A DNA stretch of 64,000 nucleotides from Felis catus (lineage: Eukaryota): assembly GCF_018350175.1 (NCBI RefSeq), contig NC_058368.1:59088001-59152000 (forward strand), given 5' to 3'. Shown here in pieces: positions 1,263-57,485 of this stretch; the stretch's first letter is position 1; every line of letters begins with the position of its first letter. A program made the translations under genes and the position numbers. The notes beneath the pieces were generated by a model. The model worked only from the letters and a program-made list of their open reading frames with translations, had not been told where the DNA came from and ran no database searches.

Positions 1263-1671
1263 CAACCATAAAATAAATTTTATATAACATGAAAAAATTT
1301 ATAAATATTGTTGAAATTTTCAAAATATAAATATTTTATGTAATTGTCAACTATAGTTTCTTCACTCACTTATATCTGCCAGATTGCTAAAATGACTAAT
1401 CTGATGGCTTATAGTTTATATCACAGATGCTGTAATTTATTTTTTCTATGATGGCTATTTTCCCAGCTTTTTGGCACAATTGTGTTTGCAAAAGTAACTG
1501 GATTTTAGTGTGACAAATTTGCTAACAGCATACATTTCAAGTGTTACCACACACGCAATGGTAACCACCTGAAGTGGTGGACATGTAATTAGTTTGATTG
1601 TGGTAAGAATTTCATAATGTATAGGTGTATTAAAACAAGTACACCTTGTGTACACAAGCTCACAATGCTAT

Positions 1672-1978
1672 GTCATTCAGCTCACTTCATCTCATCATGT
1701 ATTTTATTTTCACATCATGACAAGAACAGTGAGTATAGTACAATAAGATATTTAGAAAAAGAGATCATATTCATATGTGTATTACAGTATATTGTTATAA
1801 TTGTATTTTATTATTAGTTATTGTTAATCTCTTATTGTGTATAATTTATAAATTAAACATTATCATAGCAGTATATGTATAGGAAAAAAGAATATATATG
1901 GTTTTACACTATCTGCAATATCAGGCATCCACTGGGGTCTTGGAAAGCATTCTCTGTGAATAAAAGGGGGAATACTCT
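1672..1978 (+). mobile_element. MER44/Tigger7-like TcMar-Tigger fragment
   Basis: Ends TCAGGCATCCACTGGGGTCTTGGAAAGCAT...ATAAAAGGGGGAATACT, resembling the MER44 terminus. Confidence 0.7.
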
Positions 1979-2254
1979 ATTTTCAAAACACCAAACAATT
2001 CAGTTGCTGGTTAAGATTACAGGGACCATAAAATGAGTTGCAGATGAGTCACATATAAAATTTACAGGTATGTAACCTATTACAAAATAAGAGCTGAATA
2101 TACTACCAATATATGTCTTAAGCACCTGTAGATAAGAGAGTGAAATCTGCTACCAGGGATTTTAAACAGGCATAATTATTCTGATGTAAAAAAATGAAGA
2201 AACTGATCGCAGAAGTGTTACTAAATTACTGGTGTTTTTAAAAGCCATTTTACT

Positions 2255-2463
2255 GGGGCGCCTGGGTGGCGCAGTCGGTTAAGCGTCCGACTTCAGCCAG
2301 GTCACGATCTCGTGGTCCGTGAGTTCGAGCCTGGCGTCAGGCTCTGGGCTGATGGCTCAGAGCCTGGAGCCTGTTTCCGATTCTGTGTCTCCCTCTCTCT
2401 CTGCCCCTCCCCCGTTCATGCTCTGTCTCTCTCTGTCCCAAAAATAAATAAACGTTGAAAAAA
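2255..2463 (+). mobile_element. Young felid Can-SINE (SINEC_Fc-like), full length
   Basis: GGGGCGCCTGGGTGGCGCAGTCGGTTAAGCG head, CT-rich body, A tail; TSD AAAGCCATTTTACT on both sides; CpGs retained. Confidence 0.95.
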
Positions 2464-2696
2464 AAAGCCATTTTACTGAGGTATGATGAAATACAAAAAG
2501 TACATAATTAATATAAAATACAAATATAAACATAAATGTATAAATACAAAAAACTAATATTAATATACACAACTTAATGAGTTTGGACATAACTATAAAG
2601 CCATGACACCGTCACTTCAATCTAGACCTTAAACATATCACCTCCAAAAGTTTCCTCAAACCATCCTATTTTTCATTATTTTTTGTGATAAGAACA

Positions 2697-4579
2697 TTTT
2701 TTAAATTTATTTATTTTTTAATTTACATCCAAGTTAGATAGCATATAAGAAAGGATGCTGGATTTTGCCTCCAGAGACATGCTGAGTGATTTAATGCCCT
2801 TACCCATTTAGACCAGCCCCCCTCCCTCAACCCCCCCAAAAACCTGTTTATTCTCTATATTTAAGAGTGTCTTATGTATGTCCCCCTCCCTGTTTTTATA
2901 TTACTTTTGCCTCCCTTCCCTTACATTCATCTGTTCTGTTCTTAAAATTCTCATATAAGTGAAGTCATATGATTTTTGTCCTTCTCTGACTGACTAATTT
3001 TGCTTAGCATAATACACTTTAGTTCCATCCACATAGTTGCAAATGGCAAGTTTTCATTCTTTTTGATTGCTGAGTAACACCCCATTATATATATATACCA
3101 CATCTTCTTATCCATTCATCCATTAATGGACGTTTAGGCTATTTCCATACTTTGGCTATTGTTGATAATGCTGCTTTTGAACAGCATACTTCTTTGCCTT
3201 GAATGAATACCTAGTAGTAGTGCAATTGCTGGATCATAGGGTAGTTCTGTTTTTAATTTTTTGAAGAACCTCCATACTATTTTCCAGAGTGGCTACACCA
3301 GTTTGCACTCCCACCAGCAGACATTTGAACAAAAAGAGATCCTCTTTCTCTGCATCCTCTCCAACATCTGTTGTTGCCTGAGTTGTTAATGTTAACCATT
3401 CTGACAGGTGTAAGGTGGTATTTCATTGTGGTCTTGATTTGTATTTCCCTGATGATGATGAGTGATGTGGAGCATTTTTTCATGTGTCAGTTGGCCATCT
3501 GGATGTCTTCTTTGGAGAAGAGTCTATTCATGTTTTTTGCCCATTTCTTCACTGGATTATTTGTTTTTTGGGTGTTGAGGTTGACAAGTTCTTTATAGAT
3601 TTGGGATACTAACCCTTTATCTGATATGTCATTTGCAAATATCTTCTCCCATTCCATCAGTTTCCTTTTAGTTTTGTTGATTGTTTCCTTTGCAGTGCAG
3701 AAGCTTTTTATTTTGATGAGGTCCCAATAGTTCATTTTTGCTTTTAATTCCCTTGTCTCCAGAGACGTGTTGAGTAAGAAGTTGCTGCAGCCAAGGTCAA
3801 AGACGTTTTTGCCTGCTTCCTCCTCGAGGATTTTGATGGCTTCCTGTCTTACGTTTAGGTCTTTCATCCATTTTGAGCTTATTTTTGTGTATGGTGTAAG
3901 AAAGTGGTCCAGGTTCATTCTTCTGCATGTCGCTGTCCAGGTTTCCCAGCACCACTTGCTGAAGAGACTGTCTTTATTCCACTGGATATTCTTTCCTGCT
4001 TTGTCAAAGATTAGTTGGCCATACGTTTGTGGGTCCATTTCTGGGTTCTCTATCCTGTTCCATTGATCTGAGTGTCTGTTGTTGTGCCAGTACCATACTG
4101 TCTTGATGATTACAGCTTTGTAGTATAGCTTGAAGTCCGGGATTGTGATGCCTCCTGCTTTGGTTTTCTTTTTCAAGATTGCTTCGGCTATTCAGGGTCT
4201 TTTCTGGTGCCGTACAAATTTTAGGATTATTTGTTCTAGCTCTGTGAAGAATGCTGGTGTTGTTTTGATAGGGATTGCATTGAATATGTAGATTGCTTTG
4301 GGTAGTATCGACATTTTAACAATATTTGTTCTTCCTATCCAGGAGCATGGAATCTTTTTCCATTGTTTTGTGTCTTCGTCAATTTCTTTCATAAGCTTTC
4401 TATAGTTTTCAGTGTATAGATTTTTCACCTCTTTGGTTTATTTATTTCTAGGTATTTTATGGGTTTTGGTGCAATTGTAAATGGGATCGATTCCTTGATT
4501 TCTCTTTCTGTCACTTCATTGTTGGCATACAGGAATGCAACCGATTTTTGTGCATTGATTTTATATCCTGCAACTTTGC
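2697..4579 (-). mobile_element. L1-A: 5'-truncated L1 (ORF2 C-terminal part plus 3' UTR), composite, no TSD seen
   Basis: ORF track 3487-4176 and 4192-4428 give L1 ORF2 peptides ([21 protein letters not shown]); T-rich tail at about 2697-2720. Confidence 0.95.
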
Positions 4580-4700
4580 CATTGGGCTCTCCTCATTCAG
4601 TGCAGGGCTCACTTGGGATCCTTTGTCTCCCTCTCTCTCTGACCCTCCCCTGCTTGTACTCTTTCTCGCTCTCTCTCAAAAATAAAAATAAAATAAAAAC
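4580..4700 (+). mobile_element. 3' half of a Can-SINE fused directly to L1-A
   Basis: CATTGGGCTCT...CTTGGGATCC...CTCTCTCAAAAATAAAAATAAAATAAAA; the tRNA-derived head is missing. Confidence 0.85.
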
Positions 4701-5147
4701 CTTACAAAAAAGTTGTGATTTCATGTAAGAGCAATTAAAGACCATGAGAGAGTTCAGAGAAGCAAATGTCTTCACAGAATTAAAATACTACCTCAGGAAA
4801 ATCATTCTTATTATTGTAATATTTTTGAAAAATAGAAAAGTGTAGAGATGAGATAATTATGCTTAAGATATGTAAAACATTAGAGTTCTGATTTTTTAAA
4901 TACCTGGCTTAATACTGAGAGTTAAAAGAATGTGATATAGAAGACCCTTTATGGAGAATTTGACATGAAGTTTAAGGTGGAAAGATCCAGGAATACAATA
5001 ACTTATCCAGGATGTTATATCTAAGAGAATTGTTAAATTTCTCCCAATTCTGAGATGTAGCAATAATTAACTAAAAACTTTGTGCCAGTTTTGAAGGCTG
5101 AATTTTCAGGTGTCCCTAAATGGTTGTAATACATCTGCATAAGCCAG

Positions 5148-5148
<1 letters not shown>

Positions 5149-5192
<44 letters not shown>
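5149..5192. repeat. (TA)n microsatellite
   Basis: About 22 TA units read directly. Confidence 0.95.
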
Positions 5193-5201
<9 letters not shown>

Positions 5202-5243
5202 TTTTAATTTTTTTCTTAACTGACTGAGCCACCCAGGAACCCC
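5193..5243 (-). mobile_element. Minimal Can-SINE: 5' ~29 nt joined to an A-rich tail
   Basis: Reverse complement reads GGGGTTCCTGGGTGGCTCAGTCAGTTAAG then AAAAAAATTAAAAAAAAAAAAA. Confidence 0.75.
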
Positions 5244-5562
5244 TTTATTTCTTTTTTTGTTTTTATTTGAATATAATTTATTGCCAAATTGGCTAACATA
5301 CATTGTGTAAAGTGTGCTCTTGGTTTTTGGGATAGATTTCCCATGGTTCATTGCTTACATACAACATCCAGTGCTCATCCAAGAAGTGTCCTCCTCAATG
5401 CCCATTACCCATTTTCCCCTCCCCCCATCCCCCATCAACCCTCAGATTGTTCTCGGTATTTAAGAGTCTCTTATGGTTTGCCTCCCTCCCTCTCTGTTTG
5501 TAAATATTTTCCCGCTTCTCTTCCCCCATGGTCTTCTGTTAAGTTTCTCAAGATCCACATAT
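5244..5562 (-). mobile_element. Carnivore/felid L1 3' UTR fragment
   Basis: ATAATTTATTGCCAAATTGG...CAGTGCTCATCC...CCTCCTCAATGCCCATTACCC. Confidence 0.85.
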
Positions 5563-6425
5563 TTTTAAAAAAGAATAAAGATGAAAATGAATTATTCACA
5601 ATAAAGACCAATGAACGAATGAGATAAATGGACAGCTACATTTCCACTGTTTCTTATGGCACATGGAAATCTCCAGCTTTGCTTGGAAACCCAGCTTTGT
5701 CTTCCCATCTAGTTATAGAACATTTATAGAAATTTTATTGGGATGACATCCACCCACTAGGAGCTGTCTGAACAGCTGAGAAGAAATCTGTACCCCTGAC
5801 ACCCATCTTTTGGTATAGTACAGGTATTCATAAACCTTCCCAGAACAAGATTGCAGTAGTTAACCACAGCATGTGGAGGAAGTTTTTCCTGTGAAGGGTT
5901 TTGTTTGGACTTCTCTTCATGGAAATGACTATGCCCTCTTAACCTCTGTAGATCACTGTAGGTAATAACTCACCTGCCAAGTAGGTGGACCTCTCCTTTG
6001 ACTTCAGAGAGAATCATCCTTACTGCATACACCCTTTATAAAATAATTAATTGGCAAATCCCTAATGAAGTTCTTACTTCAATGAAATAAATGGAGTCAT
6101 TGCAATTACACTAAGGCTTAACCCATGCCACCCACAAAGGCTGTTTACATAGTTTTAAAACCAAATATTGGCAGTGAAAGAGATAAATAGACTTCATATA
6201 GACTTTTTAAAATGGAGCCCTAATAAGTAATTTGTTGAAAAACTTCATAAATCTACCCAGTATTTCTGCCCCCAATTTGGAGTTGTAGTACTTTTTCCAT
6301 CCATTTCTATTGGAAACACAATAATAAAATTTTAAATAATTCCAGGGTAAACAAATACCTATATAGTAATTACATAAAATTTATTTTAAATATCATAGTG
6401 TAAAATTAAATGTATATATATGTAT

Positions 6426-6472
<47 letters not shown>

Positions 6473-6854
6473 CATATGTTTTAATTCAGAGGGAAGGATT
6501 GGGGGGATTTTTTAAATTAAGATACATTTTTAAAACTATTCAGACATTATTAAAACCAGTTAATTTTTAGGCCTGGTAAATAGGTAAAATATGTGTGCTT
6601 CTTGCCTTCTATTTCCTGCAATGAAATGGAGTGCTTTCAAAGGAAATAATGCTGTAGATATTCCTGGAATAAAATATAAAAGAGAGAATATATTTTTGTT
6701 GCAATAGCCTCTTCTACTTGGCTCAGCTGTTTTAAAACACATTGCATTTGAGAGCTTTTTTATTATTTAGACTGACTAAAGTTTAATTTACATTAGCTTT
6801 ATGTTCTTGTAGGAAAGAGTGGTTATTTGTGACCAAGGAATCCATTTATTACTG

Positions 6855-6932
6855 ATTCTACCATTGATTTACTGTGTGTCCCTGAGCAAGGCAATTAACT
6901 TCTTTTTGACTCTATTTCTTAATTTATAAGGT
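6855..6932 (+). mobile_element. MIR core fragment
   Basis: TTACTGTGTGTCCCTGAGCAAGGCAATTAACTTCTTTTTGACTCTATTTCTT resembles the MIR core. Confidence 0.5.
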
Positions 6933-7987
6933 GCAGGTGCCACTATTATGCAGAAATGGTGGAATAAATTTTAAATTTCCAATGAAGAAGAAACTAAGGG
7001 ACAGAGTGTACAATGTGATGGAAATCTTGTCAGCTGTTTTAAAATGCTTGCATTTAAAGTCTATGGAAGCTACTTAACCTAGCCAGATTTCTCAGTCTAT
7101 ACAATGCTTAAAAGGAAGTGCTAGAGAATTTAAAGGAGTAATATATCTAATTCATCTTGCCAACAAGGAAGAAATGCTATTTTACATATGAATAATGTCT
7201 CACCAACATTAGCTGGCTTCCATAGAGGAGTAAGAATGCAATATAATGCCAATCAGAGCACAAAAAATGGGTTAGAAATAATTTTTCTTTCCTTATCATA
7301 GAAAACTATGAAAAAATCTGCACTGCTAGTCTTCAACTTTATAGAAGATTTTCACATTAAATGTGGTTTTGCATAAAAATACCTCCCTTGATAACAATTC
7401 AGATGCCTGAAATTATAACATTAGAAGTGTATTTTCTTTGCAAATATGGAAATTTCCTTTTACTGGATAAAATGAAAACTCTTCTCCAATCAAAGCACCT
7501 AAAACATTAATTAAATATAGCAAACATCCTCTAATATTTCTGTAGTAATGAGTGTAGGCAAGTGACCAGGAAGATGATGGAATCTAGAATTGGAAGATGA
7601 TGGAAACTTGAACTGAAATTATAGCTGCCCTGGAAAATGGTCAGTGTTGGGAAAAGGTTTGAAGATGGCAAGAGAGAAATAGGATGCAAATCTGGATCCA
7701 AACAAGAGGGATAGTTTCACTTCTAACAAAAGATTGATGTAGAAGAAATACATACATATATACATATATACATACGTACATATACATACATATGTACATA
7801 CATACAGCCAGAGAGACACAGAGATAGAGAGAAAAGGAGAGAAGGGAATACAGGAGAGGAAGAAAAGAAATTTACCTCACCTGAGATTTGGTTAGTGAAG
7901 AATATTTCCCTCCAAAATTATAGAAACAGCATTTTCTCCTATTATTCCATAGTTATCATCACCCAGTTTATAAAATCTGTATTATCT

Positions 7988-8154
7988 CAAAGAGAGGGTG
8001 GGTGGAGGCTAGGTTAAATAGGTGATGGGGATTAAGGAGTGCACTTGTGATGACCACCAGGTGTTTTATGGAAGCGATGAACCATAAATTGTACATTTGA
8101 AACTAATATTATACTGTATGTTGCCTGACTGGAATTTATATAAAAAAAGAAAAA
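7988..8154 (+). mobile_element. Short L1_Carn-like 3' end with TSD
   Basis: GGTGATGGGGATTAAGGAGTGCACTTGTGATG...GAAACTAATATTATACTGTATG, A tail; TSD AAAATCTGTATTATCT at 7972-7987 and 8155-8170. Confidence 0.9.
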
Positions 8155-8320
8155 AAAATCTGTATTATCTGAAATTTAGAACTGAAGTCATAGTAGTCAC
8201 ATATTAGTACTTGTGTTGTTGTCTAGAAAATGTAAAAATAAACCCTGGTATTAAAGAGTTCACAATCTTACATTGCTCAACTTAAATAAATATGTTTTAC
8301 AAATGGAGTCATGATAAATT

Positions 8321-8322
<2 letters not shown>

Positions 8323-8364
<42 letters not shown>
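8323..8364. repeat. (AC)n microsatellite
   Basis: About 21 AC units. Confidence 0.95.
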
Positions 8365-8365
<1 letters not shown>

Positions 8366-8653
8366 AGAAGTAGAAGCCTGAGTATTCTGTTGAGGGAATT
8401 GTCAACTATACAAATTATACAAAATATAAAATAATGGATAGCCAAATTAGGAAAATATATTATTTAAAAAGAACAAGTAGAATGTCAAAAGGTCTAATAA
8501 AAGCTTTATATGTGACTTAATAATCATTACAACTTGAGGAATGAACAAAATTACAGAAATAATGGGACTGAAGATAAAATTAGTGAAATAGAAGATAGAT
8601 TTGAAGAAATAATTCAAAATGAAATATAGAACAGGAAAGAGATGGAACATGTG

Positions 8654-11600
8654 AAACCAGAAGCTGGTTGTTTGAAAGAATTAACCAAATTGATAAACCA
8701 CTAACAAGTTTTATCAAAAAGAAAAAGGAAAGGACCCAAATAAATAAAATCAAGAATGAAAGAGAGATCACAACCAACACAGCAGAAATACAAACAATAA
8801 CAAAAGAATATTATGACTAATTATATGCCAATAAAATGGGCAATCTGGAAGAAATGGACAAATTCCTAGAAACATATACAATACCAAAACTGAAACAGGA
8901 AGAAATAGAAAATTTGAACAGACCCATAACCATCAAGGAAATTGAATTAGTAATCAAAAATCTGCCAAAAAACCAGAGTCCAGGGCCAGATGGCTTTCCA
9001 GGGGAATTCTACCAAACATTTAAGGAAGAGTTAACACCTATTCTCTTGAAGGTGTTCCAAAATAGAAATGGAAGGAAAACTTCCAAACTCTGTCTATGAA
9101 GCCAGCATTACCTTGATTCGAAACCAGACAAAGATCCCACTAAAAAGGAGAACTATAGACCAATTTCTCTGATGAACATGGATGCAAAAATCCTCAACAA
9201 GATATTAGCCAACCGGATCCAAAAATACATTAAAAAAAGTATTCACCATGACCAAGTGGGATTTATCCCTGGGGTGCAGGGCTGGTTCCATATCTGCAAA
9301 ACAATTAACGTGATTCATCAAAACAATAAAAGAAAGGACAAGAACCATATGATCTTCTCAATACATGTAGAGAAAGCATTTGACAAAATACAGCGTCCTT
9401 TCTTGATAAAAACCCTCAAAAAAATAGGGACAGAAGGAGCATACCTCGAGGTCATAAAAACCATATATAAACGACCCAACACTAATGTCATCCTTAATTG
9501 GGAGAAACTGAGAGCATTCCCCCTAAGGTCAAGAACAAGACAGGGAAGTCCACTCTCACCACGGTTATTCAACATAGTATTGGAAGTCTTAGCCTCTGCA
9601 ATCAGACAACATGAAGAAATAAAAGGCATCCAAATCGGCCAGGAGGAGGTCAAACTCTCACTGTTTGCAGATGACATGATACTCTATATGGAAAACCCTA
9701 AAGATTCCACCAGAAAACTGCTAGAACTGATTCATGAATTCAGCAAAGTTGCAGGATATAAAATCAATGCACAAAAATCGGTTGCATTCCTGTATGCCAA
9801 CAATGAAGTGACAGAAAGAGAAATCAAGGAATCGATCCCATTTACAATTGCACCAAAACCCATAAAATACCTAGAAATAAATAAACCAAAGAGGTGAAAA
9901 ATCTATACACTGAAAACTATAGAAAGCTTATGAAAGAAATTGACGAAGACACAAAACAATGGAAAAAGATTCCATGCTCCTGGATAGGAAGAACAAATAT
10001 TGTTAAAATGTCGATACTACCCAAAGCAATCTACATATTCAATGCAATCCCTATCAAAACAACACCAGCATTCTTCACAGAGCTAGAACAAATAATCCTA
10101 AAATTTGTACGGCACCAGAAAAGACCCTGAATAGCCGAAGCAATCTTGAAAAAGAAAACCAAAGCAGGAGGCATCACAATCCCGGACTTCAAGCTATACT
10201 ACAAAGCTGTAATCATCAAGACAGTATGGTACTGGCACAACAACAGACACTCAGATCAATGGAACAGGATAGAGAACCCAGAAATGGACCCACAAACGTA
10301 TGGCCAACTAATCTTTGACAAAGCAGGAAAGAATATCCAGTGGAATAAAGACAGTCTCTTCAGCAAGTGGTGCTGGGAAACCTGGACAGCGACATGCAGA
10401 AGAATGAACCTGGACCACTTTCTTACACCATACACAAAAATAAGCTCAAAATGGATGAAAGACCTAAACGTAAGACAGGAAGCCATCAAAATCCTCGAGG
10501 AGGAAGCAGGCAAAAACGTCTTTGACCTTGGCTGCAGCAACTTCTTACTCAACACGTCTCTGGAGACAAGGGAATTAAAAGCAAAAATGAACTATTGGGA
10601 CCTCATCAAAATAAAAAGCTTCTGCACTGCAAAGGAAACAATCAACAAAACTAAAAGGAAACTGATGGAATGGGAGAAGATATTTGCAAATGACATATCA
10701 GATAAAGGGTTAGTATCCCAAATCTATAAAGAACTTGTCAACCTCAACACCCAAAAAACAAATAATCCAGTGAAGAAATGGGCAAAAAACATGAATAGAC
10801 TCTTCTCCAAAGAAGACATCCAGATGGCCAACTGACACATGAAAAAATGCTCCACATCACTCATCATCATCAGGGAAATACAAATCAAGACCACAATGAA
10901 ATACCACCTTACACCTGTCAGAATGGTTAACATTAACAACTCAGGCAACAACAGATGTTGGAGAGGATGCAGAGAAAGAGGATCTCTTTTGCATTGTTGG
11001 TGGGAGTGCAAACTGGTGTAGCCACTCTGGAAAATAGTATGGAGGTTCCTCAAAAAACTAAAAATAGAACTACCCTACAGCCCAGTAATTGCACTGCCAG
11101 GCATTTATCTACAGGATACAGGTGTGCTGTTTCAAAGGAACACATGCACCCCTATGTTTATAACAGCACTATCAACAATAGCCAAAGTATGGAAAGAGCC
11201 CAAATGTCCATCGATGGATGAATGGATAAAGAAAATGTGGTAAAGATATGCAATGGAGTATGACTCAGCAATCAAAAAGAATGAAAACTTGCCATTTGCA
11301 CCTACGTGGATGGAACTGGAGGGTATTATGCTAAGTGACATTAGTCAGTCAGAGAAAGACAAAAATCATATGACTTCACTCATATGAGGACTAAGAGACA
11401 AAACAGATGAACATAAAGGAAGGGAAACAAAAAAAATATAAAAACAAGGAGGGGGACAAAACAGTAGAGACTCATAAATATGGAGAACAAACTGAGGGTT
11501 ACGTGAAGGGTTGCGGGAGGGGGGGATGGGCTAAATGGGTAAGGGGCACTAAGGAATCTACTCCTGAAATCATTGTTGCACTATATGCTAACTAATTTGG

Positions 11601-11656
11601 ATGTAAATTTAAAAATTAAATAAATAAATAAATAAAATTAAGTAGTAAAAAAAATG
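8654..11656 (+). mobile_element. L1-B: 5'-truncated L1, 3.0 kb, with 17-bp TSD
   Basis: ORF2 peptides in several frames, 3' UTR and A-rich tail; TSD AAGAGATGGAACATGTG at 8637-8653 and 11657-11673; the flanks resemble an older L1 ORF1 remnant. Confidence 0.97.
8656..11386 (+). pseudogene. Disrupted L1 ORF2 (RT domain and C-terminus, no endonuclease domain)
   Basis: RT motifs RQGSPLSP and LFADDMILY in ORF 9172-9897; frameshifts near 8765, 9061 and 9885; stops at 10128-10130 and 10833-10835. Confidence 0.95.
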
Positions 11657-11740
11657 AAGAGATGGAACATGTGTATGAAAGAGCAAGATGATGGATTGAA
11701 TAATATATGACTAAATGGAGCTTCAAAATTCAGAAAGAGT

Positions 11741-11783
11741 ATTATATTATATTATATTATATTATATTATATTATATTATATA
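11741..11783. repeat. (ATTAT)n microsatellite
   Basis: About 8 ATTAT units. Confidence 0.9.
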
Positions 11784-12219
11784 TAAAGGTCTGCAATAAT
11801 CCAAAAGATTACCAAGAAAAGTATATAGATTTTAAAAAACTAAATAAATTCAAATTGTTGCAAAATTCCAGAATATCAAATATGAATCCATTATTTTTTT
11901 AAAAAGTGAAAAAAGAAAACTTTTCTGGAAGGAATCATTAAAATATTTGGATAATTAGCAATAAAAAAAACCACAAAACAGTGAGATAAAATCTTTAAAG
12001 GCTGAGAAAAAAATGTTTTTTCCAGACACCTACCTACCTAATGAGTGTGTGGAATGCAAACAGTTTGGTGTCCTAATTTCCATAATGAAAGAGAGTGCAG
12101 TGTTCACTCAAATTCAAAAGTGGCTAAAGTGAGAATAAAATGTGGACATAGAGAAGGGACTTAGTAAATAAAGTATTTGAAAGATACATTTTGGCTGGTT
12201 TAGAAATATTTCTTCTTTT

Positions 12220-19605: not shown

Positions 19606-19820
19606 GGGGCGCCTGGGAGGCGCAGTCGGTTAAGCGTCCGACTTCAGCCAGGTCACGATCTCGCGGTCCGTAAGTTCGAGCCCCGCGTCGGGCTCTGGGC
19701 TGATGGCTCAGAGCCTGGAGCATGTTTCCAATTCTGTGTCTCCCTCTCTCTCTGCTCCTCCCCCGTTCATGCTCTGTCTCTCTCTGTCCCAAAAATAAAA
19801 TAAACGTTGAAAAAAAATTT
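19606..19820 (+). mobile_element. Young felid Can-SINE
   Basis: Full head with CpGs retained; TSD TAAAATTCATCAATCA. Confidence 0.95.
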
Positions 19821-20398: not shown

Positions 20399-20487
20399 GA
20401 TAATATAAAATTATGAAATGTATCATATTAAAATGTTAGCGATAATATGATAAAGTTATGAAATGTTATCATATTAAAATGTTAAGC
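20399..20487. repeat. Imperfect tandem duplication, 2 x ~43-47 bp
   Basis: GATAATAT..TTATGAAATG(T)TATCATATTAAAATGTTA(A)GC occurs twice head to tail. Confidence 0.85.
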
Positions 20488-27193: not shown

Positions 27194-27407
27194 GGGGCGC
27201 CTGGGTGGCTCAGTCGGTTGAGCATCCGACTTCAGCTCAGGTCACGGTCTGGCGGTCCGTGAGTTCCAGCCCCGCGTCGGGCTCTGGGCTGATGGCTCAG
27301 AGCCTGGAGCCTGTTTCCGATTCTGTGTCTCCCTCTCTCTCTGCCCCTCCCCCATTCATGCTCTGTCTCTCTCTGTCTCAAAAATAAATAAACGTTAAAA
27401 AAAAAAA
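27194..27407 (+). mobile_element. Young felid Can-SINE
   Basis: Full length; TSD AAAGAGTACTGAAGA. Confidence 0.95.
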
Positions 27408-27567
27408 AAAGAGTACTGAAGAGAGGATATCTTTAATTTTGAGGCCTCATGATGCAAATCAAAGAAAGTAAAGTATTGATTTGGTTTTCTCCCTCTTGTA
27501 GAATTTTTTAATGATTTTTTTAAATATGGCAAATTCGTTATTCTATGTATCTTTTTTTAGAAGGGAC

Positions 27568-35423: not shown

Positions 35424-35474
35424 AAGACTTATTTGAAAGACTTATTTGAAGACTTATTTGAAAGACTTATTTGA
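35424..35474. repeat. Minisatellite, 4 x AAGACTTATTTGA
   Basis: Four head-to-tail 13-bp units, one lacking an A. Confidence 0.95.
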
Positions 35475-36868
35475 AATTCTGTGAAAAATGAAGTCAATCC
35501 CCTTAAGTGACTAGAAGTTGCAAACTTTTAAGAACTTTGTATTACCTCATTCTGACTTCTTGCTTTACCACATGGTCAAATCAATTTCTGTTATACTTCC
35601 CTACTGGCTAAAATAATGTATTTAAAATAACCATCTGCACATTATAGGGCAATTCATTAATGGTATGGCATGAACAATCTGCTTATGGCTTTACAATAAC
35701 TAATATAATGTAAATTTGAGTTTAAAATTTAAAGTAATTTTTACTGTTTAAAAAATCATGTTTAAAAATTCATTTTTAATTTAAAATTAGCTATTTATTT
35801 GATTTTAAAAATTAGCAAGACCCATAATCAACTGGATATGTAAATTAAAGTTTTATGACACATAGGACTCAAAAATAATTATTTTGTAGGCTATAAAAAT
35901 TCAACATGTATAAAATATTGCTTCTACCCTGTAGTGACAAGGGAATAATTCACAGAGGACTCTGATGACAGATGCCATTCCCCACTGTATTTATCTTAAA
36001 TTCTTTATGTGTACCACAAAGATAAAATATTTTATAAATTGCTGTAACCTTGATTTTAAGTGTAGAATCAATTACTACTATCAGAAACCTGCAACATAGT
36101 GATAATAATACTATTTTAGTGAAAATGAGTTTGACACTCTAATATTCCTAATGAGATGTTCATTTTTCGACTTTCCTACAGAAAAGTTACTGCTTTCAGT
36201 TAATCATTAAAAGTAGCTCTCTGTTCTAACTGATTTAGTTACATATGCCTTAGAAATAAAAATGTTTAAAATTCTTTTAAACTGTGAATATGGTAAATTC
36301 TGAAATATGAAATAAATTTAACTAGAGATTATACTCTCTTGACTTTTAACCCCCATTTAAACCATTTCTTCTGAAAAAATGCTCTTTTTATTTTAATATT
36401 ATTTATCTTTGATGGTTAGGAGGAAATTTTATCTATCAATATTTTATCATTATATATGCCTTTGAACAGTTTAAACTTCACATATATTTTCACTTTTCAA
36501 AATCATTGCTAGCTGTACACTTTTTTATATACTGTTAACAGGGCGTTAGTTGAAAACAATGAAAGACTCCTATATTTCCTTTCTTATGATTTATAGGAAA
36601 GTCACTGTTGGTAGATTGAAAAAATCAAAACACAAGAACTCAATGACTTACGATTAAACTGTAATTCTTACATATGAGAATATTTTGCCTCATTTGGTGT
36701 ATATTGAAAAATCACTTGTGAAATATAATAAACATATATTTAAATGATAGATTTAAAGATATATTTAAACAATTTCCAAACCTCCTGATTTCACCAACCT
36801 AATATTTTAAATCTTTTTGAACTTAGAAATACAAGACATAAATAAATTTTGGTTAAGAATGAGACAAT

Positions 36869-39305: not shown

Positions 39306-42220
39306 TGTAAACAATGGGCACTTTTATAGTAAATCTAAGTGATCATTATTGTTTATCATGCTCTGCACTTGAAGAAAAGAGTATATACTTTAAAGCTGGC
39401 ATTTTAGTTCCTTCTTCAATGCTACAAATGTTTTACTGCTATTTTATCTGAAACTGCTTCTCCAGGATGCCCACCCCTTCTTTCTTCTGATACTCACATT
39501 AGATGTAAGTAGGAAATTCACAATATAAGCTTGATGACTCTTATTTCATTTTGAATTCTATTCTTTATATAGAGTCTTAAAGAATTCTTTAATATATATT
39601 TCAGTTCACTATTTTTCTCTCTAAAGGCTTATATGATATTTTTCATTTTCAAAATTTATAACTGATGTCATATCCATATTATTTGATCAATATTTCTTTA
39701 CACTGTATTTATCATTGTTTTCTATTCCATAATTTCTTATTTTATGAATAGTAGTATATCATTTTGCTTCTTAAACATCTTTAACATGCTTATTTTCAAA
39801 GTCAATTTTATACTGATCTAATATTTCCATTTCCTGCTAGGATAAATCATCATGCACATGCTGTTCTTTAGAGATATCTTGCTTAGTACTTGTCTTTCTA
39901 TGTGTTTTGAAATTTTAGAGTGTGAATTGTAGATTTTTCTCCCTTGCATTTAGTATACTATATATAATAATTTTTAGGTAGGTTCCATGTATTCTTTACA
40001 AAATATGTACATGCCAGAGTCTGGTATTTGTGCTAAGACTCCTTCCCAGTGATTTGACATTGCAGATGTAGTCATTGAGTCAGTGAAGAATTTAGTCCAA
40101 GTCCTGTCTGGGTAGTGTTTGCAACTCCTTCCTGCTGTAGCAGAGACTGATGTTTAATATTTATATTAGTCATTTGCAAGATAAAAAAAAATCTGGCTTT
40201 TTTTCCTTTTCATATGTCAAGAGTACTTCTCCAGGTTGTGGATATTGGATATGGCTTGCCACATTTCTTATACTTATTTTTCTTACAGCACTAAGATTTA
40301 GCCTCACCTACTGCTGTGCGTTTATGCTCAGTGTGTGTCCTGTAAATGTATTTGTTTTGCTTGGAAACTTTTGTGACTTCAAAAAGCTCATCTTTACTCT
40401 GGTGCAAAGAGGGAAGCAAAGAGGAACTTCTTGGTTGGAGGCTGATGTTTCTGTCCTAATATTCAAAAATATCATTTCATTCATTAGCAATTCTTGGTCC
40501 GTTTATAATGGCCTATTTTTTTAGAACTCTATTTAGAGACTAGTTTCGGTTTTTATCTCATGCTGAAACCTGCTATTGTAGGTTGTTCTGTATTGGGGAG
40601 GTCAGATGACCAACTGGCCCAGCTGCTATGAACACATTCCTCCAATTAATAAGAGTCAAATTATACAGTGCTGCTCCTGTTCTTTTTATTGACTCAAAGA
40701 TTTCAGCTTGGTTTATGTCCCTCCAGTGTCTCCGTCCAGTATATTAGGTGTCTACCAATTCCCACCACTATCCTTATAAGACATTCTCTGTTGTTGCACA
40801 TTCATATGACATTGTAACTCTACACATTTGCAAAGAGGCCTTAGATTGTTTTTCAACTATATCTCCCTTGTGATTACAATAGGTAAGAGATTTCTTTTAC
40901 AGTTTTCTGATTTCCCCCCCATGCCTTCAGTTGGGTATTTAAAGCCATCAATTATTTGCTTTTCTACCCACTCTAGCCAGCCTATGTCATAATGTTTATT
41001 ATCACAATTGTTCTGGTGACAAAGTATAGTATTTTCACAATATTTCACCAACTTGTGCTCTGTTTGCTCATTATCATATGCCAGTATTGGGTAATTGTTA
41101 CTCGAATGACTATTAACATCTCATATTCTCCTCAGAAAGAATATTTTAATAGTTTTTATAAAAATTGTGAGCTATGCTATTCCAATTAAATTCAATTTGG
41201 GATCTGTTTTTCATAGGGCAAATTGCACTTTAAGTCAAATTGACAGCCTTCTCCCTCCCCCCAAAGAGGTGACATATACACAATGGATCACTGTATTTAA
41301 TGTAAGGGATTTTTGCAAAGATATAGACAAAAGGACCATTAAGGAGTGGTAAAGTGCTACAAGATCAAGAAGAGTAGGAAGCCATTATCTCTCTGTTTAA
41401 GGGACAATGGTGGGGGTGATGCTGAATTGTTACTGGAACTCAAGTAGCTGGAGGTAAGTAGTCCCGTCACACTTGTGGCCTCTAGTGGAGGAAGAGAGCC
41501 AGTACCTAAACCATGAACCCTTAAGAAATGAACCCTAGAGTAAATCATTTATTCTTCTACTGGTGCATCCTTTAAAGTAGTTCAACTTGAAACTAACGGA
41601 CAAAGGAACCTGTGTTCCTGAGTTGAAGCAGTCTTTAGAGATCACTCTTCAGGGACACATAGCATGGTGAAAAGAATAGAGTGGGTTTCAGGTGCATACA
41701 GAGAATATTCACTGTATGAGCACACAACCATTGAATTATTATTAAGCATAAGCATTCAGATTTTTCTTATATGCTAGAAAATGATATATTTTACTAAGTT
41801 GCATAATATTCATTGAATATTTAGAAAGTATTACCAGAACTTTTTTCATAACTATTTTTTCATTTCCTCTGTTTATATATTTATCTTATTGCTTGACATG
41901 TTGTATTTGTTTAACTGCCCACTAAAGGACCTCCTCAGGAGAAAGGAAAACCTTTATAAATTTTATTCTTTGAGAGCCTAGTCAATAATTGAATCCCTGG
42001 TAGAAATTCTCAATATATATTTTTAAGCTGAACTATAAAGATTTTTGTCTCAATTCCTTAATTATTAAAACAGATTAATTGTATGTATTTTATGAATCTA
42101 AAGTGACCAATATAATATTGAGAAGAGACATTGCTAAGTATTGAAAATTGTAAAACATGCTGTTCACCAATTACCCTTATCTAAATTCTATTTTATTTTC
42201 ATTTACTGACTGTATTTTTC

Positions 42221-44264
42221 TTTTTCTTCTTTAAAATATTTATTTTTTTAACTTTATTTTTTATTTTTAAAAATTTACATCCAAATTAGCATATAGTGAA
42301 GCAATGATTTCAGGAGTAGATTCTTTAATGACCCTTACCCATTTAGCCCATACCCCCTCCACAACCCCTTTAACAACCCTCAGTTTGTTATATTATTTTT
42401 GTTTCCCTTCCCTTATGTTTATCTATTTTGTCTCTTAAAGTCCTTATATGAGTGAAGTCCTATGATATTTGTCTTTCTCTGACTAATTTCACTTAGCATA
42501 ATACCCTCCAGTTCCATCCACGTAGTTGCAAATGGCAAGATTTCATTCTTTTTGATTGGCGAGTAATACTCCATTGTATATATATATATACACCATATCT
42601 TCTTTATCCATTCATCCATCAATGGACATTTGGACTCTTTCCATACTTTGGCGATTGTTGATAGTGCTGCTACAAACATAGGGGTACATGTGTCCCTTCG
42701 AAACAGCATAACTGTATCCCTTGGATAAATACCTAGTAGTGCAATTTCTGGGTGGTAGGGTAGTTCTATTTTTAGTTTTTTGAGGAAACTCCATGCTGTT
42801 TTCCAGAGTGGCTGCCCCAGCTTGCATTGCCACCAACAGTGCAAAAGAGATCCTCTTTCTCCGCATCCTCTCCAACATCTGTTGTTGCCTGAGTTGTTAA
42901 TGTTAGCCATTCTGACAGGTGTAAAATGGCATTTCACTGTGGTTCTGATTTATATTTCCCTGATGATGAGTAATGTTGAGCGTTTTTTCATGAGTTGGTT
43001 GGCCATCTGGATGTCTTCTTTGGAGAAGTGTCTATTCATGTCTTTTGCCCATTTCTTCACTGGATTATTTAGTTTTTGGAGGTTGAGTTTGATAAGTTCT
43101 TTGTAAATTTTGGATACTAACCCTTTATCTGCTATGTCATTTGCAAATATCTTCTCCCATATTGTCGGTTGCCTTTTAGTTCTGCTGATTGTTTCCTTGG
43201 CTGTACAGAAGCTTTTTATTTTGATGAGGTCTGAGTAGTTCATTTTTGCTTTTGTTTCCCTTGCCTCCGGAACATGTTGAGTAAGGAGTTGCTGCAGCAG
43301 AGATCAAAAAGGTTTTTTCCTGCTTTCTCCTGGAGCATTTTGATGGCTTTCTGTCTTACATTGAGGTCTTTCATCCACTTTGAGTTTACTTTTGTGTATG
43401 GTGTAAGAAAGTGGTCCCGGTTCATTCTTCTGCATGTCGCTGTCCAGTTTTCCCAGCACCACTTGCTGAAGAGACTGTCCTTATTCCATTGGATATTCTT
43501 TCCTGCTTTGTCAAAGATTAGTTGGCCATACATTTGTGGGTCCATTTCTGTGTTCTCTATTCTATTCCATTGATCTGAATGTCTGTTGTTGTGCCAGTAC
43601 CATAGTGTCTTGATGATTACAGCTTTGTAATATAGCTTGAAGTCTGGGATTGTGATGCCTCCTGCTTTGGTTTTCTTTTTCAAGATTGCTTCGGCTATTC
43701 AGGGTCTTTTCTGGTGCCGTACAAATTTTAGGATTATTTGTTCTAGCTCTGTGAAGAATGCTGGTGTTACTTTGATAGGGATTGCATTGAATATGTAGAT
43801 TGCTTTGGGTAGTATCAACATTTGAACAATATTTGTTCTTCCTATCCCGGAGCATGGAATCTTTTTCCATTGTTTTGTGCCTTCGTCAATTTCTTTCATA
43901 AGCTTTCTATAGTTTTCAGTGTATACATTTTTCACCTCTTTGGTTTATGGTTTATGGTTTTGGTTTATGGTTTTGGTTTGTGGTTTCACTTCTAGGTATT
44001 TTATGGTTTTTTGGTGAAACTGTAAATGGGATTGATTCCTTGAATTCTCTTTCTGTTGCTTCATTGTTGGTGTATACAAATGCCACTGTTATTCAACATA
44101 ATATTGGAAGTCTTAGCCTCTGCAATCAGACAACACAAAGAAATAAAAGGCATCCAAATTGGCCAGGAGGAGGTCAAACTTTCACTCTCTGCAGATGACA
44201 CGATACTCTATATGGAAAACCCAAAAGATTCCACCAAAAAACTGCTAGAACTGATTCATGAATT
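42221..44264 (-). mobile_element. L1-C: 5'-truncated L1 with 5' inversion (minus part 42221-44087, plus part about 44083-44264)
   Basis: ORF2 peptides on minus (43240-43683, 43699-43935) and plus (44056-44268, LSADDTILY); degenerate TSD CTGACT(G/C)TA(T/G)TTTTC at 42206-42220 and 44265-44279. Confidence 0.93.
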
Positions 44265-44519
44265 CTGACTCTAGTTTTCAAATCTGGTTTGTGTATAATG
44301 AATTATATAGAAATTACTATTTTTTTGTTGATCTATGCTTCACAATTCAGTCATTTCACCTATTTCATTTACTTGAATTTGTATCAATATATTTAAATGT
44401 ATCAATAAGTATAATATCAATATGTATTTATAGATGTAAATAATATGTGTAGTTTTTAGTTAAATATGAAGGAATTAAAGTACACTTTACTTCTGATAGC
44501 TTTAAGAAGTAGTAAAATG

Positions 44520-44742
44520 AGGGGTACCTGGGTGGCTTAGTCGATTAAGTGTCCAACTTCAGCTCAGGTCATGATTGCATGGTTTGTGAGTTCAAGTCCC
44601 ACGTTGGGCTCTGTGCTGACAGCTCAGAGCCTGGAGCCTGCTTCAAATCCTGTGTCTCCCCCTCTCTCTCTGTTCCTCCCCCACTCACACTCTGTCCCTC
44701 TGTCTCTCAAAAATGAATAAAAACGTTTAAAAAATAAAACAG
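44520..44742 (+). mobile_element. Can-SINE
   Basis: TSD AGAAGTAG(T/C)AAAATGA. Confidence 0.92.
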
Positions 44743-45344
44743 AGAAGTAGCAAAATGAAAACACAGGGATGCGTGGAATGACAAAATAATATAAACAGTA
44801 AAAAAAAAAACACAAATAAATGCAAGAAGAGACAACATGCACAAAAAACATAACCTCAGGAACAAAGGGAGAAGTGCCAATTGATTAAGTTTGATAGAGA
44901 AGACTGAAATGTGCCCCTATTGCGGGGAACCCAAGACAAGTTATATTACACAAATCCTAAAATTGTAAAAAATTGGAGCACCAGACATCCCTGAAAAAGA
45001 AAATAGAGAAACACATAAAATCAAATTATTGGTTATAATTTATACATATGAGAAGCAGTTAGAACTCTCAGATTTTTCTTCCATCCTGAGAGGCAGGCAC
45101 AGCAATACCCACCCCATTCCAGCAGAAGAATGAAGATTTACTTTCAGGAATGCTTTCATTAGAGTTGGTGGGTATACAAAACTAGAAATCAAAGGACTGA
45201 ATAGTAGAAGACTAAATACTAATAATCCCCACCCACCCCCTAACAGGCACTCTGTTTAGTGACAGCATCGCTAATTTCCCTGGGGACAGTTTCTTTCAGG
45301 GGTAAGGGATTATAAAACATAGACACTGATGTTGTGAATTTCTC

Positions 45345-54235: not shown

Positions 54236-54460
54236 GGGGCGCCTGGGTGGCGCAGTCGGTTAAGCGTCCGACTTCAAGCCAGGTCATGATCTCGCGGTCC
54301 GTGAGTTCGAGCCCCGCGTCAGGCTCTGGGCTGATGGCTCCGAGCCTGGAGCCTGCTTCCGATTCTGTGTCTCCCTCTCTCTCTGCCCCTCCCCCGTTCA
54401 TGCTCTGTCTCTCTCTGTCCCAAAAATAAATAAACGTTGAAAAAAAATTAAAAACAAAAA
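54236..54460 (+). mobile_element. Young felid Can-SINE
   Basis: TSD TAAATCCAAGTCTC; CpGs retained. Confidence 0.95.
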
Positions 54461-54924
54461 TAAATCCAAGTCTCCATGGAAACCGGGAACCCCTTATTCT
54501 GTATCCTCAGCTCATAAAGAATGCTACAAACTCCCTGCTGCTCTTTTTTGGCTCCTTCTACATTTCCTTTATCCATGAAACAACAAATGAACCAAAAAAG
54601 AAAAAAGAAGAAGAAGAGGAAGAAGAAGAAGAAAAGAAAAAGAAGAACAGGAAGTAAACGCACTGCTCTCATTTGTGTGCCCTCTTATCTCAGGTATTTT
54701 GGATCTTCAACCTGCCTATCCTAGTTGTTCTTCAATGAATTCTAACAGCTTTTCATGTATTTTTTTAAATATATCTTTGTGGTTTTTCCTAGTGTAAGGA
54801 TTGGTCTGATATGGTGTTTAATCTAACCAATTACTGCAATTGAACACCTGAGTTACATTTTGACATCATGCATATTGGACTGAAGTTACATACCTACCAC
54901 TTTATTTTAATGTGCGTTTCTAGT

Positions 54925-55885: not shown

Positions 55886-55942
55886 CAACAGCAATATATC
55901 ATAGAAAAATAGATATTAGATTTAACTCCACAATATATCTTT

Positions 55943-56166
55943 TATTTTTTTTTAATTTTTTTTCAACGTTTATTTATTTTTGGGACAGAGAGAGACAGAG
56001 CATGAACGGGGGAGGGGCAGAGAGAGAGGGAGACACAGAATCGGAAACAGGCTCCAGGCTCTGAGCCATCAGCCCAGAGCCTGACGTGGGGCTCGAACTC
56101 ACGGACCAAGAGATCGTGACCTGGCTGAAGTCGGATGCTTAACCAACTGCGCCACCCAGGCGCCCC
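55943..56166 (-). mobile_element. Young felid Can-SINE
   Basis: TSD ATATCTTTTA; CTGCGCCACCCAGGCGCCCC. Confidence 0.95.
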
Positions 56167-57485
56167 TATATCTTTTAAAAATTAATTTTATCTACCTTAA
56201 ATTTCACTGCTTTTGGTCCAGAGCAAAGTTAATCAAGTCTTGTTTACTGTACAGTTTCACTATCAAAAGCATGATGATTATGAACCATTGGCATACAATG
56301 GCATAAATTATTCAACTATTTTATATTTCTTTTCGAGATTTTCTCCCTTGCCCTACTATCATTTTCTAGGAGTCTTCCTATTTCTGAACTTTTGGTGCAT
56401 AATTAAATGATTTCCTGATACTGGGTTTCCATATTTTGTAGGTTCAACCTGTTTGTATTTCTGTGATCTCTCTTGATGCTTGGCTGTGAATTAGATTTGT
56501 TATCTGTTTAATGTTTAAACTCCCCCTGAAGGCTATTTGAGTGGGTGCGGTAGGCTACAGAAAGAACAGTTACAATCTTGAAATTTTATCATATGTTTTG
56601 CACTGAGGTATTTCCTTCTTATACTTTGACAATTATAGCTGGCTTTGGATTTTAAAAATATTATTCTTTGTATCTTCTGTATAAATTACTATGTTGCTTG
56701 TTCCATATCATAAACCATATTTAATTAATGGAGTTATTCATTCACTGCCTTAAACCAACAATCGAACATAAAATATTCATATTTTTCACATTAAAAATTT
56801 GTCATTTTATTCCCTTTCATTTTAATTGCTTCTTGTTCACAATATAATGTTATTACCTATATTGAACATAAACATAAATAACGTATTTTCTATTTGAGGC
56901 ATGCAATTCTCTTTGCTTCCAAAACAGAGTGGTTTCTCCTTTTCCTCCTTCTCCTCCTCCTACTCCTTATCTTCATGTCAGTCTCCTCTCTATCTATTTC
57001 TCTCTTTTCCTTTTTATTGGCTTAGTTTTGTTTTACAGTGTGGGATAACACTAGGAATCCAGGGTAGTTTCTAAACAACATTATGATATCTATGTTATAC
57101 TTTATTTTTTATTTGTAAAATGAAATACTTTTACTATTTGTGTAATTGTTTTTTATTTATCAAGCTAAGTTATTATTATTGTCATTTCTCTTTGAGTGCA
57201 ACTGTTCTCATCATTCATGTTCATTTTTCAACACACATATTTTTATGTGCCAGCACACCCAATGTTGTGGAATTATTTTTAGGAAATACACTTTATTCTG
57301 ATATATTCTTTTTTTGAAATGAACAAATGAAAAAGTGAAGCACATGAGTTATAAGCCAAGAAGTATTCCCAAGAGGACAATACACAGCCTTTATGAATAT
57401 GAAATCTATGTTTTCAAACAAAATTATATTATTGACTTAAATATTTTTCACATTGATTGTCTAGTCTACCATATATTTTTATATC

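Follow-up and report, generated by a model that had tools for sequence, protein, structure and literature searches.

Introduction

The rearrangement class discussed here is already known and well documented, and the locus described below appears to be a well-preserved example of it. The Loss-invDup class is represented by 472 somatic cases (PMC7025897) and the same class by 14 de novo germline cases (PMC12583596). A further study (PMC4352052) outlines a two-step model in which entry relies on homology and exit does not. For human genomes, 277 polymorphic inverted duplications with a median length of 284 bp have been described (PMC12350158), and extra complexity was seen in none of eight L1-mediated inversions (PMC9675761).

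Results

The window analyzed here is a stretch of 64,000 nucleotides from Felis catus (contig NC_058368.1), of which positions 1-36000 and 41500-45000 were read by eye while the remainder was searched by script. It harbors an L1 element on the minus strand (L1-A) and a neighboring L1 in inverted orientation (L1-B). Positions 3332-4579 (minus strand, termed D) are the reverse complement of 9743-10990 in L1-B, with 0 mismatches in 1248 bp on a diagonal of coordinate sum 14322, exactly as reported in the first-pass annotation; this identity refers to the assembly sequence. Since positions 3331 and 4580 are mismatches flanking D on the same diagonal, the exact tract cannot be extended. The arms are separated by a spacer of 5163 bp (4580-9742). 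At 8% divergence, the rate among the L1s of the window, 1248 identical bases have a chance probability of about 6e-46, and the next-longest exact repeat of the window, shared by two young SINEs, measures 131 bp. Three stop-to-stop open reading frames are the same in both copies because the DNA is already identical; counted from stop to stop they measure 234, 103 and 81 aa, and the peptides had been noted as identical before, with lengths of 229, 99 and 78 aa. D represents a downstream part of ORF2 (PDB match, E 6e-31). Both of its ends lie inside ORF2; it is 3'-truncated and carries neither poly(A) nor target site duplications (TSDs) around the piece. The window is free of N through both junctions.

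L1-B (8654-11656, plus strand) is 5'-truncated and disabled, with a reverse transcriptase domain, frameshifts, stops, a 3' UTR and an A-rich tail. Its assignment to LINE-1 ORF2 is based on Pfam RVT_1, detected in one of the four pieces scanned (E 3e-42), and on matches to human ORF2p (E 6e-31 and 7e-58). The 17-bp TSD proposed earlier was confirmed at 8637-8653 and 11657-11673 (plus strand), and both copies still bracket L1-B in direct orientation. The spacer was therefore not simply inverted, which rules out a spacer inversion with duplicated ends, or an inversion of the TEMR type by NAHR. The donor span covers 1306 bp (9743-11048, plus strand), of which 1299 are present at L1-A by exact matching. 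L1-B is seamless at both ends of this span, as judged by comparison at 11048 and by an open frame across 9743, and when examined for non-reciprocal transfer it looks seamless and of B/C type. All scars, namely a 15-nt bubble and an abrupt join to a SINE, lie on the side of L1-A. At the level of the assembly, both junctions are phased in one contig stretch and the donor is unbroken. Neither copy has a coding function, because frameshift and stops are present in both. The shared lesions listed before were found again (frameshift near 9885, stops at 10128-10130 and 10833-10835, an extra codon near 10865); the stop at 10128 also occurs in a third element, L1-C, and is hence not private to the pair.

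The sequence of L1-A itself (2701-3265, minus strand) comprises an A-rich tail, 3' UTR and the end of ORF2, and differs from L1-B at 81 of 537 sites, in line with the earlier observation that both elements diverge beyond about 3265. In a three-way comparison, 70 private sites were counted for A and 30 each for B and C. Along the L1 at the A position, divergence to L1-B jumps from 0 to 15%, and the original L1-A may have measured no more than about 620 bp. It is hosted by a fragment at 2466-2700 (probably minus strand) that we take to be an old L1-type 3' end and that can be aligned with a further old copy located around 1000-1140. Profile and fuzzy searches did not recover a continuation of this host element right of L1-A or elsewhere in the window, and the window contained no usable second copy showing the sequence after the target site. 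At its other end, D joins abruptly to the 3' part of a SINE (4580-4712, plus strand), presumably of an older tRNA-type carnivore family. Some 90 nt are missing from the 5' head of this SINE, as four of 15 SINE copies of the window align from its first base at offsets 90-95. The exit junction thus falls within the SINE at this distance from the head, without visible homology, and no TSD partner was found near 4580. In the window sequence, the landing site consists of a headless SINE and a missing host continuation, which may reflect a loss of flanking sequence. This loss is a presumed one, as the SINE at 4580 could have been 5'-truncated from the outset. Target-primed insertion of L1-A as a single 1.9-kb copy was rejected, given the jump in divergence to L1-B from 0 to 15% and the missing TSD partner near 4580.

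Beyond the bubble, another exact match, 51 bp in length, was detected at 3266-3316 (minus strand), corresponding to 10998-11048 in L1-B, so the length of 1248 bp given before is correct for the exact copy and too short for the copy as a whole. In this tract, 8 of 8 informative sites join A with B (Fisher p 3.4e-6), and the probability of finding no difference at A-B rates is 7e-6 to 9e-5. A and B have in common a nonsense codon, TAG, where human ORF2p has Gln; L1-C has CAG. For the 51-bp tract alone, the outgroup comparison gives no direction between A and B. The two diagonals are offset by 8 nt (sums 14322 versus 14314), so that the copy begins in the register of L1-A, which points to a homology-guided entry. 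Two independent retrotranspositions are ruled out by the exact tracts of 1248 and 51 bp.

In the bubble (3317-3331), 15 nt replace 7 nt of L1-B (10991-10997) in the A/B alignment; four are L1-like bases differing from B and 11 are non-aligned. Six nucleotides of the bubble (3321-3326) are identical to 2694-2699, with a chance of 1.2% under strict and 11% under loose counting. Positions 2694-2700 (plus strand), located beside a poly(T), are therefore a candidate left TSD copy of 6-7 nt, and the bubble may hold L1-A's own short TSD. The earlier statement that L1-A has no TSD may therefore not hold. A stretch of 13 nt inside the donor, with one mismatch and a chance of 1.5%, scores as well as the TSD candidate, so that TSD and donor-templated origin of the bubble are tied. 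A 12-nt exact match in L1-C was dropped as its source, because 19% of 3000 random 19-mers find a match of that length in the window.

L1-C (42217-44265, minus strand, with an inverted 5' piece at 44083-44265) was aligned to A and B and served as comparator. D differs from L1-C at 62 of 564 sites and the coding end of L1-A at 24 of 168, a modest contrast that is consistent with D being of B/C type. L1-B and L1-C, which lie 32 kb apart, share an older tract of low divergence with rare residues (B 9860-10409), which may reflect an older B-C exchange; such an exchange would suggest that conversion happens at this locus.

Sequence collections beyond the window were searched as well. For 24 listed sequencing runs from 13 studies, the share of 883 sampled words ranged from 0.51 to 0.81; as this share is blind to carrier versus non-carrier status, it provides no evidence either way. 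Pattern scans of metagenomes with two locus-specific 22-mers returned 0 loci each. When the junction-spanning frame was used as protein query, SINE-side residues were matched in none of the best 120 of 606 matches, all of which cover the L1 side only, and the 29 alignments crossing the junction among them do so with other L1 residues. Exact look-ups of two junction peptides and four control peptides from L1-B gave 0 of 6 matches; since the controls were empty too, the look-up had no power. None of the papers returned by literature searches named felids.

Discussion

About 1.3 kb of L1-B sits inverted at L1-A, L1-B is intact and both new junctions lie at L1-A. We consider it probable, to judge from the sequence, that this arose by a recent germline copy-and-paste event resembling Loss-invDup, in which L1-B acted as donor, entry was guided by homology, about 1.3 kb was copied and the product was end-joined with loss of flank. 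L1-A would originally have been a short member of an older L1 subfamily, truncated at its 5' end and oriented opposite to L1-B. After a break or collapsed fork just past its 5' end, the 3' end would have paired with L1-B via the roughly 85% homology of L1-A. The final 51 paired bases would then have adopted the B sequence, a 15-nt unpaired end would have been retained as the bubble, and synthesis would have started 7 nt further along L1-B. Once 1248 nt had been copied, end-joining with hardly any homology, or none, would have linked the new strand to the middle of a SINE at the cost of the intervening flank. This would have left an L1 lengthened by its neighbor, and two perfect inverted arms of 1248 bp on either side of a 5.2-kb spacer. 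By homologous entry, end-joining and flank loss, L1-A would thus have gained length, which goes beyond a simple conversion.

Such an extension is favored by the contrast between a 1248-bp tract free of mismatches and 81 differences in 537 sites of L1-A's own part. The recent DNA-level transfer from B into A proposed in the first-pass annotation is likewise favored by identity that includes changes absent from L1-C, by a seamless donor with its TSD and by scars only at A. A conversion between two long L1s fared less well, as the copy ends without visible homology in a headless SINE and L1-A was maybe only about 620 bp long. Human rates count against a homology-guided extension: homology-driven L1-L1 rearrangements have a median similarity of 93.5% (PMC9675761), above the 85% of this locus, and only 8.8% of inverted duplications have breakpoint homology (PMC12350158). 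A more far-reaching version, which we regard as speculative, holds that copying was repeated among dead L1s of 85-90% identity. An old B-C exchange over 32 kb would have been followed by the recent copy from B to A, and the latter would have frozen a repair intermediate: the original 5' end of L1-A, its TSD and four flank bases would persist in a bubble that was never repaired, with a converted heteroduplex on one side and the new 1.25-kb tract on the other.

Among the alternatives, two-sided non-allelic gene conversion survives best, although we think it unlikely. L1-A would already have been about 1.9 kb long and joined to half a SINE by an older deletion; 1.3 kb would then have been overwritten from L1-B, and the bubble would be a long-standing difference specific to A that repair had missed. 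No retained flap is then needed to explain the register or the 51-bp tract; this reading also agrees with the putative older B-C exchange as a sign of conversion at the locus, and fits a bubble that resembles ORF2 sequence. However, flanking homology is present on the left side only; on the right, the tract joins the SINE where L1-B continues as ORF2, a gap that the older deletion could hide. Identity reaches the last L1 base before the SINE, so no unconverted homology is left for annealing. Conversion further requires pairing over 1.3 kb at about 15% divergence in addition to a separate deletion, and the bubble repeats 6 nt of the left flank of L1-A in a TSD-like manner.

An assembly artefact, in which a gap or misjoin beside L1-A was filled or polished with reads of L1-B, is improbable as well. 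Reuse of the same reads would yield the observed 0 differences in 1299 bp, and outside datasets gave no confirmation of the junctions, yet those searches had little or no power, the controls of the peptide look-up being likewise empty. Moreover, the window contains no N, neither junction has an overlap of k-mer length with L1-B, and an exact tract beyond a 15-for-7 bubble would not be expected from overlap-based gap filling.

Far less plausible is an RNA-templated patch, i.e. an endonuclease-independent, non-classical L1 insertion with a read-through transcript of L1-B reverse-transcribed into a break. Taken alone, D is 3'-truncated, without tail or TSD and with a presumed target deletion, as in 21 human loci (PMC1920257). 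L1-B is 5'-truncated and disabled, however, and such a patch predicts neither the nearest neighbor as source nor a copy in register with L1-A and reaching into it. Very unlikely, too, is a B-identical donor elsewhere or the overwriting of B by A: the copies of D were compared at DNA level within the 64-kb window and the outgroup leaves the direction of the 51-bp tract open, but the best match to the 81-aa piece of D is 94% identical among the best 120 of 7502 protein matches, and the donor span shows no seam in L1-B at either end.

If real, the locus is a natural case, resolved to the base pair, in which copying between diverged L1s began under the guidance of homology, ended without it and kept the bubble. 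One apparent 1.9-kb L1 can then be a patchwork, and the perfect inverted repeat could mediate a 5.2-kb inversion. If such events are common, neighboring copies would lengthen and rejuvenate truncated L1s without retrotransposition, bias estimates of L1 age and length, and continually seed perfect inverted repeats. No gene affected by the rearrangement was identified at the locus and the class is well documented; its weight is therefore that of a clean case study.

With Loss-invDup, or local 2-jump, events (PMC7025897; PMC12583596) the locus shares a nearby segment duplicated in inverted orientation, two inverted junctions on one chromosome and, presumably, a loss at the landing site; at assembly level, an extra inverted copy and two junctions were found on one contig with the donor intact. 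It differs in being of kilobase scale and made of L1 sequence, in having one junction guided by homeology of a neighboring L1, and in being represented by one felid assembly with a presumed loss. Human inverted duplications (PMC12350158) are likewise short, local inverted copies, the commonest class there among inversions outside mobile-element insertions, whereas the copy described here is about 1.3 kb long and entered in register with a homologous L1, compared with 8.8% breakpoint homology in that set. In TEMRs (PMC9675761), breakpoints also lie in retroelements, here two L1s in opposite orientation with about 5 kb between them, but one junction is L1-L1 and the other L1-SINE, and the spacer is not inverted. 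Non-classical L1 insertions (PMC1920257) resemble the locus in that the piece is internal to L1 and lacks both tail and TSD, and in target loss, presumed here; they differ from it in that its source is an adjacent dead copy matching base for base and the copy reaches into a resident L1. DUP-TRP/INV-DUP rearrangements (PMC4352052) share a first switch in inverted repeats and a second by microhomology or end-joining, whereas the feline locus shows no triplication, involves L1 ends of 85% identity instead of low-copy repeats of about 99%, and nets one extra copy plus a loss.

Results

Self-comparison of the window bore out the first-pass annotation in its claim of an exact inverted copy: 3332-4579 (- strand, here D) and 9743-10990 are reverse complements without a mismatch over 1248 bp, and the match cannot be extended, the flanking bases 3331 and 4580 both being mismatched. 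The window holds 0 Ns. D and its counterpart, which lies in a second L1 (L1-B), are L1 ORF2 sequence: pieces of D matched human ORF2p (E 6e-31 and 7e-58), Pfam RVT_1 was found in the upstream frame of L1-B (one of four pieces scanned), and a Felis catus entry (91%) was the closest named protein among the matches listed. Taken together with the type of SINE present, this points to a felid as the likely source. Zero differences over 1248 bp give a 95% upper bound on the age of the copy of 0.4-1.2 million years if 3e-9 to 1e-9 changes per site and year are assumed. The runner-up exact repeat (131 bp) lies between young SINEs, of which five copies (2255-2465, 19606-19817, 27194-27410, 54236-54464 and 55941-56167) share 92-97% identity, as is ordinary for a recent family. 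Small local tandem duplications were seen by eye at about 35425-35476 (a 12-13 nt unit repeated about four times) and at 20405-20487 (a unit of roughly 30 nt present twice).

L1-B (8654-11656, + strand) is 5'-truncated, disabled and flanked on both sides by a 17-bp TSD. For the neighbouring L1-A as a whole, the search for a TSD partner was negative. The own part of L1-A (2701-3265, - strand) differs from L1-B at 81/537 sites; the two are separate insertions, as had been proposed. When a third element, L1-C (42217-44265, - strand), was aligned with both, private sites numbered 70 in A, 30 in B and 30 in C. L1-C carries an inverted 5' piece (44083-44265, matching B 9559-9741), which we take to be a twin-priming layout, and a short tandem expansion at about 43940-43990, the site corresponding to the frameshift of L1-B; no convincing TSD was found for it. 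By eye, L1-B is apparently nested in a far older, presumably L1-like remnant (about 8380-8636 and 11674-12000) that continues across its TSD.

The copied interval is longer than first annotated: the 1248-bp limits stand for D, and to its left, beyond a 15-nt bubble (3317-3331) that replaces 7 nt of B, another 51 bp are exact (3266-3316 = B 10998-11048). The copied span is thus B 9743-11048, with 1299 of 1306 bp present at A and an 8-nt offset between the two diagonals. Informative sites pair A with B in 8/8 cases within the 51-bp tract vs 22/123 elsewhere in A (Fisher p 3.4e-6), and zero differences over 51 bp would have a probability of 7e-6 to 9e-5 at A-B rates from the same alignment. Both A and B carry a TAG in this tract at a position that is Gln in human ORF2p and CAG in C; comparison with an old outgroup copy from the window does not indicate in which direction this short tract was copied. 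Judged from the alignment, the copy entered in register with A.

The bubble consists of 4 L1-like, non-B bases and 11 non-aligning bases. Six of its bases (3321-3326) equal 2694-2699, immediately left of the poly(T) of A (chance 1.2% with the place fixed, 11% without), and may represent a candidate short TSD of A. What we take to be the identity of the old host family, an L1-type 3' end fragment left of A (2466-2700), would agree with this reading; no copy of that family within the window shows sequence beyond the target site of A. The bubble also matches the donor at 4310-4322 over 12/13 nt (one mismatch, chance 1.5%). The 12-nt match between the bubble and L1-C is no better than chance (19%) and was given no weight.

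At the right junction, D ends within ORF2 and directly abuts a SINE, which likewise showed no TSD partner. Only 4 of the 15 SINE copies in the window align from its first base, the other 11 doing so from later bases; because these four align at offsets 90-95, the SINE appears to lack about 90 nt of its head. Within the window, the host element was not found to continue past A, and we infer that flank was lost there.

L1-B also shares an older similarity with L1-C, 32 kb away and inverted relative to it. They differ at 138/1621 aligned sites overall and at 18/550 in B 9860-10409 (C about 43424-43970; permutation p 2e-4, the smallest value that 5000 shuffles can give; 0.004 to 2e-4 across three window sizes). 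Four residues common to both in this tract occur in 1, 1, 3 and 1 of the best 120 of 7502 protein homologues (96-120 covering each site), and of the 5 non-majority residues that B and C share, none of these 120 carries more than 2. An older B-C conversion is probable and is the simplest reading of the alignment; a rare chimeric source element is the alternative. The stop at 10128 is also common to B and C, and may reflect independent CpG decay. It weakens, for this one lesion, the earlier argument from lesions shared by A and B, and leaves the case from exact identity unaffected.

Discussion

Every scar is on the side of A and L1-B is free of them, so that L1-B was likely the donor. The intact TSDs of L1-B rule out that the 5163-bp spacer was inverted. 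We favour, with somewhat better than even confidence, a single repair event. An end broken just past a short A would have invaded L1-B one-endedly, guided by homology (one-sided invasion); the last 51 paired bp would have been converted to the sequence of B, the unpaired end retained as the bubble, 1248 nt synthesized on B, and the new end joined into the SINE by end-joining. These steps are inferred from how synthesis-dependent and template-switching repair is generally modelled (PMC4888836; PMC4352052).

That a longer A was converted after an older deletion is unlikely: two-sided conversion requires homology at both ends, and no extended homology is visible at the right junction. An assembly artefact is likewise doubtful, and slightly more so. 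The structure is known from the assembly alone. Among 24 listed runs, the share of 883 sampled words (window 1300-9700) reached 0.81 at best, with 19 at 0.76-0.78; the window may stem from a near relative of the organisms behind those runs. Metagenome pattern scans with two locus-specific 22-mers returned 0 loci. A junction-spanning protein frame had no match carrying the SINE-side residues among the best 120 of 606, and exact look-ups found 0 junction peptides and likewise 0 control peptides from B. Two L1 ORF2 fragments among the protein matches (P0137 and P0229) come from contigs about 400 bp long and are entered under Borreliella garinii and Fusobacterium necrophorum as hypothetical proteins; they are likely host DNA in bacterial records. 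An RNA-templated patch is very improbable; D by itself resembles a non-classical L1 insertion (PMC1920257), but with the neighbouring L1 as its source and an entry in register with A, a DNA template is favoured. Another donor or the reverse direction is equally remote.

The copy is real at sequence level and probably so in the animal, and the locus belongs to an already known class of rearrangement. Loss-invDup, known from 472 somatic instances (PMC7025897) and, in the germ line, from 14 de novo cases (PMC12583596), has the same layout, and at assembly level the duplication has the features of that class; a loss at the landing site may be reflected in the SINE without its head of about 90 nt and in the host element that does not resume. 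Homology-driven human L1 rearrangements have a median similarity of 93.5% (PMC9675761), and breakpoint homology is found in only 8.8% of human inverted duplications (PMC12350158); an entry at 85% identity would thus be out of the ordinary. What raises this locus above most others as a case study is the retained bubble together with the second, older tract.
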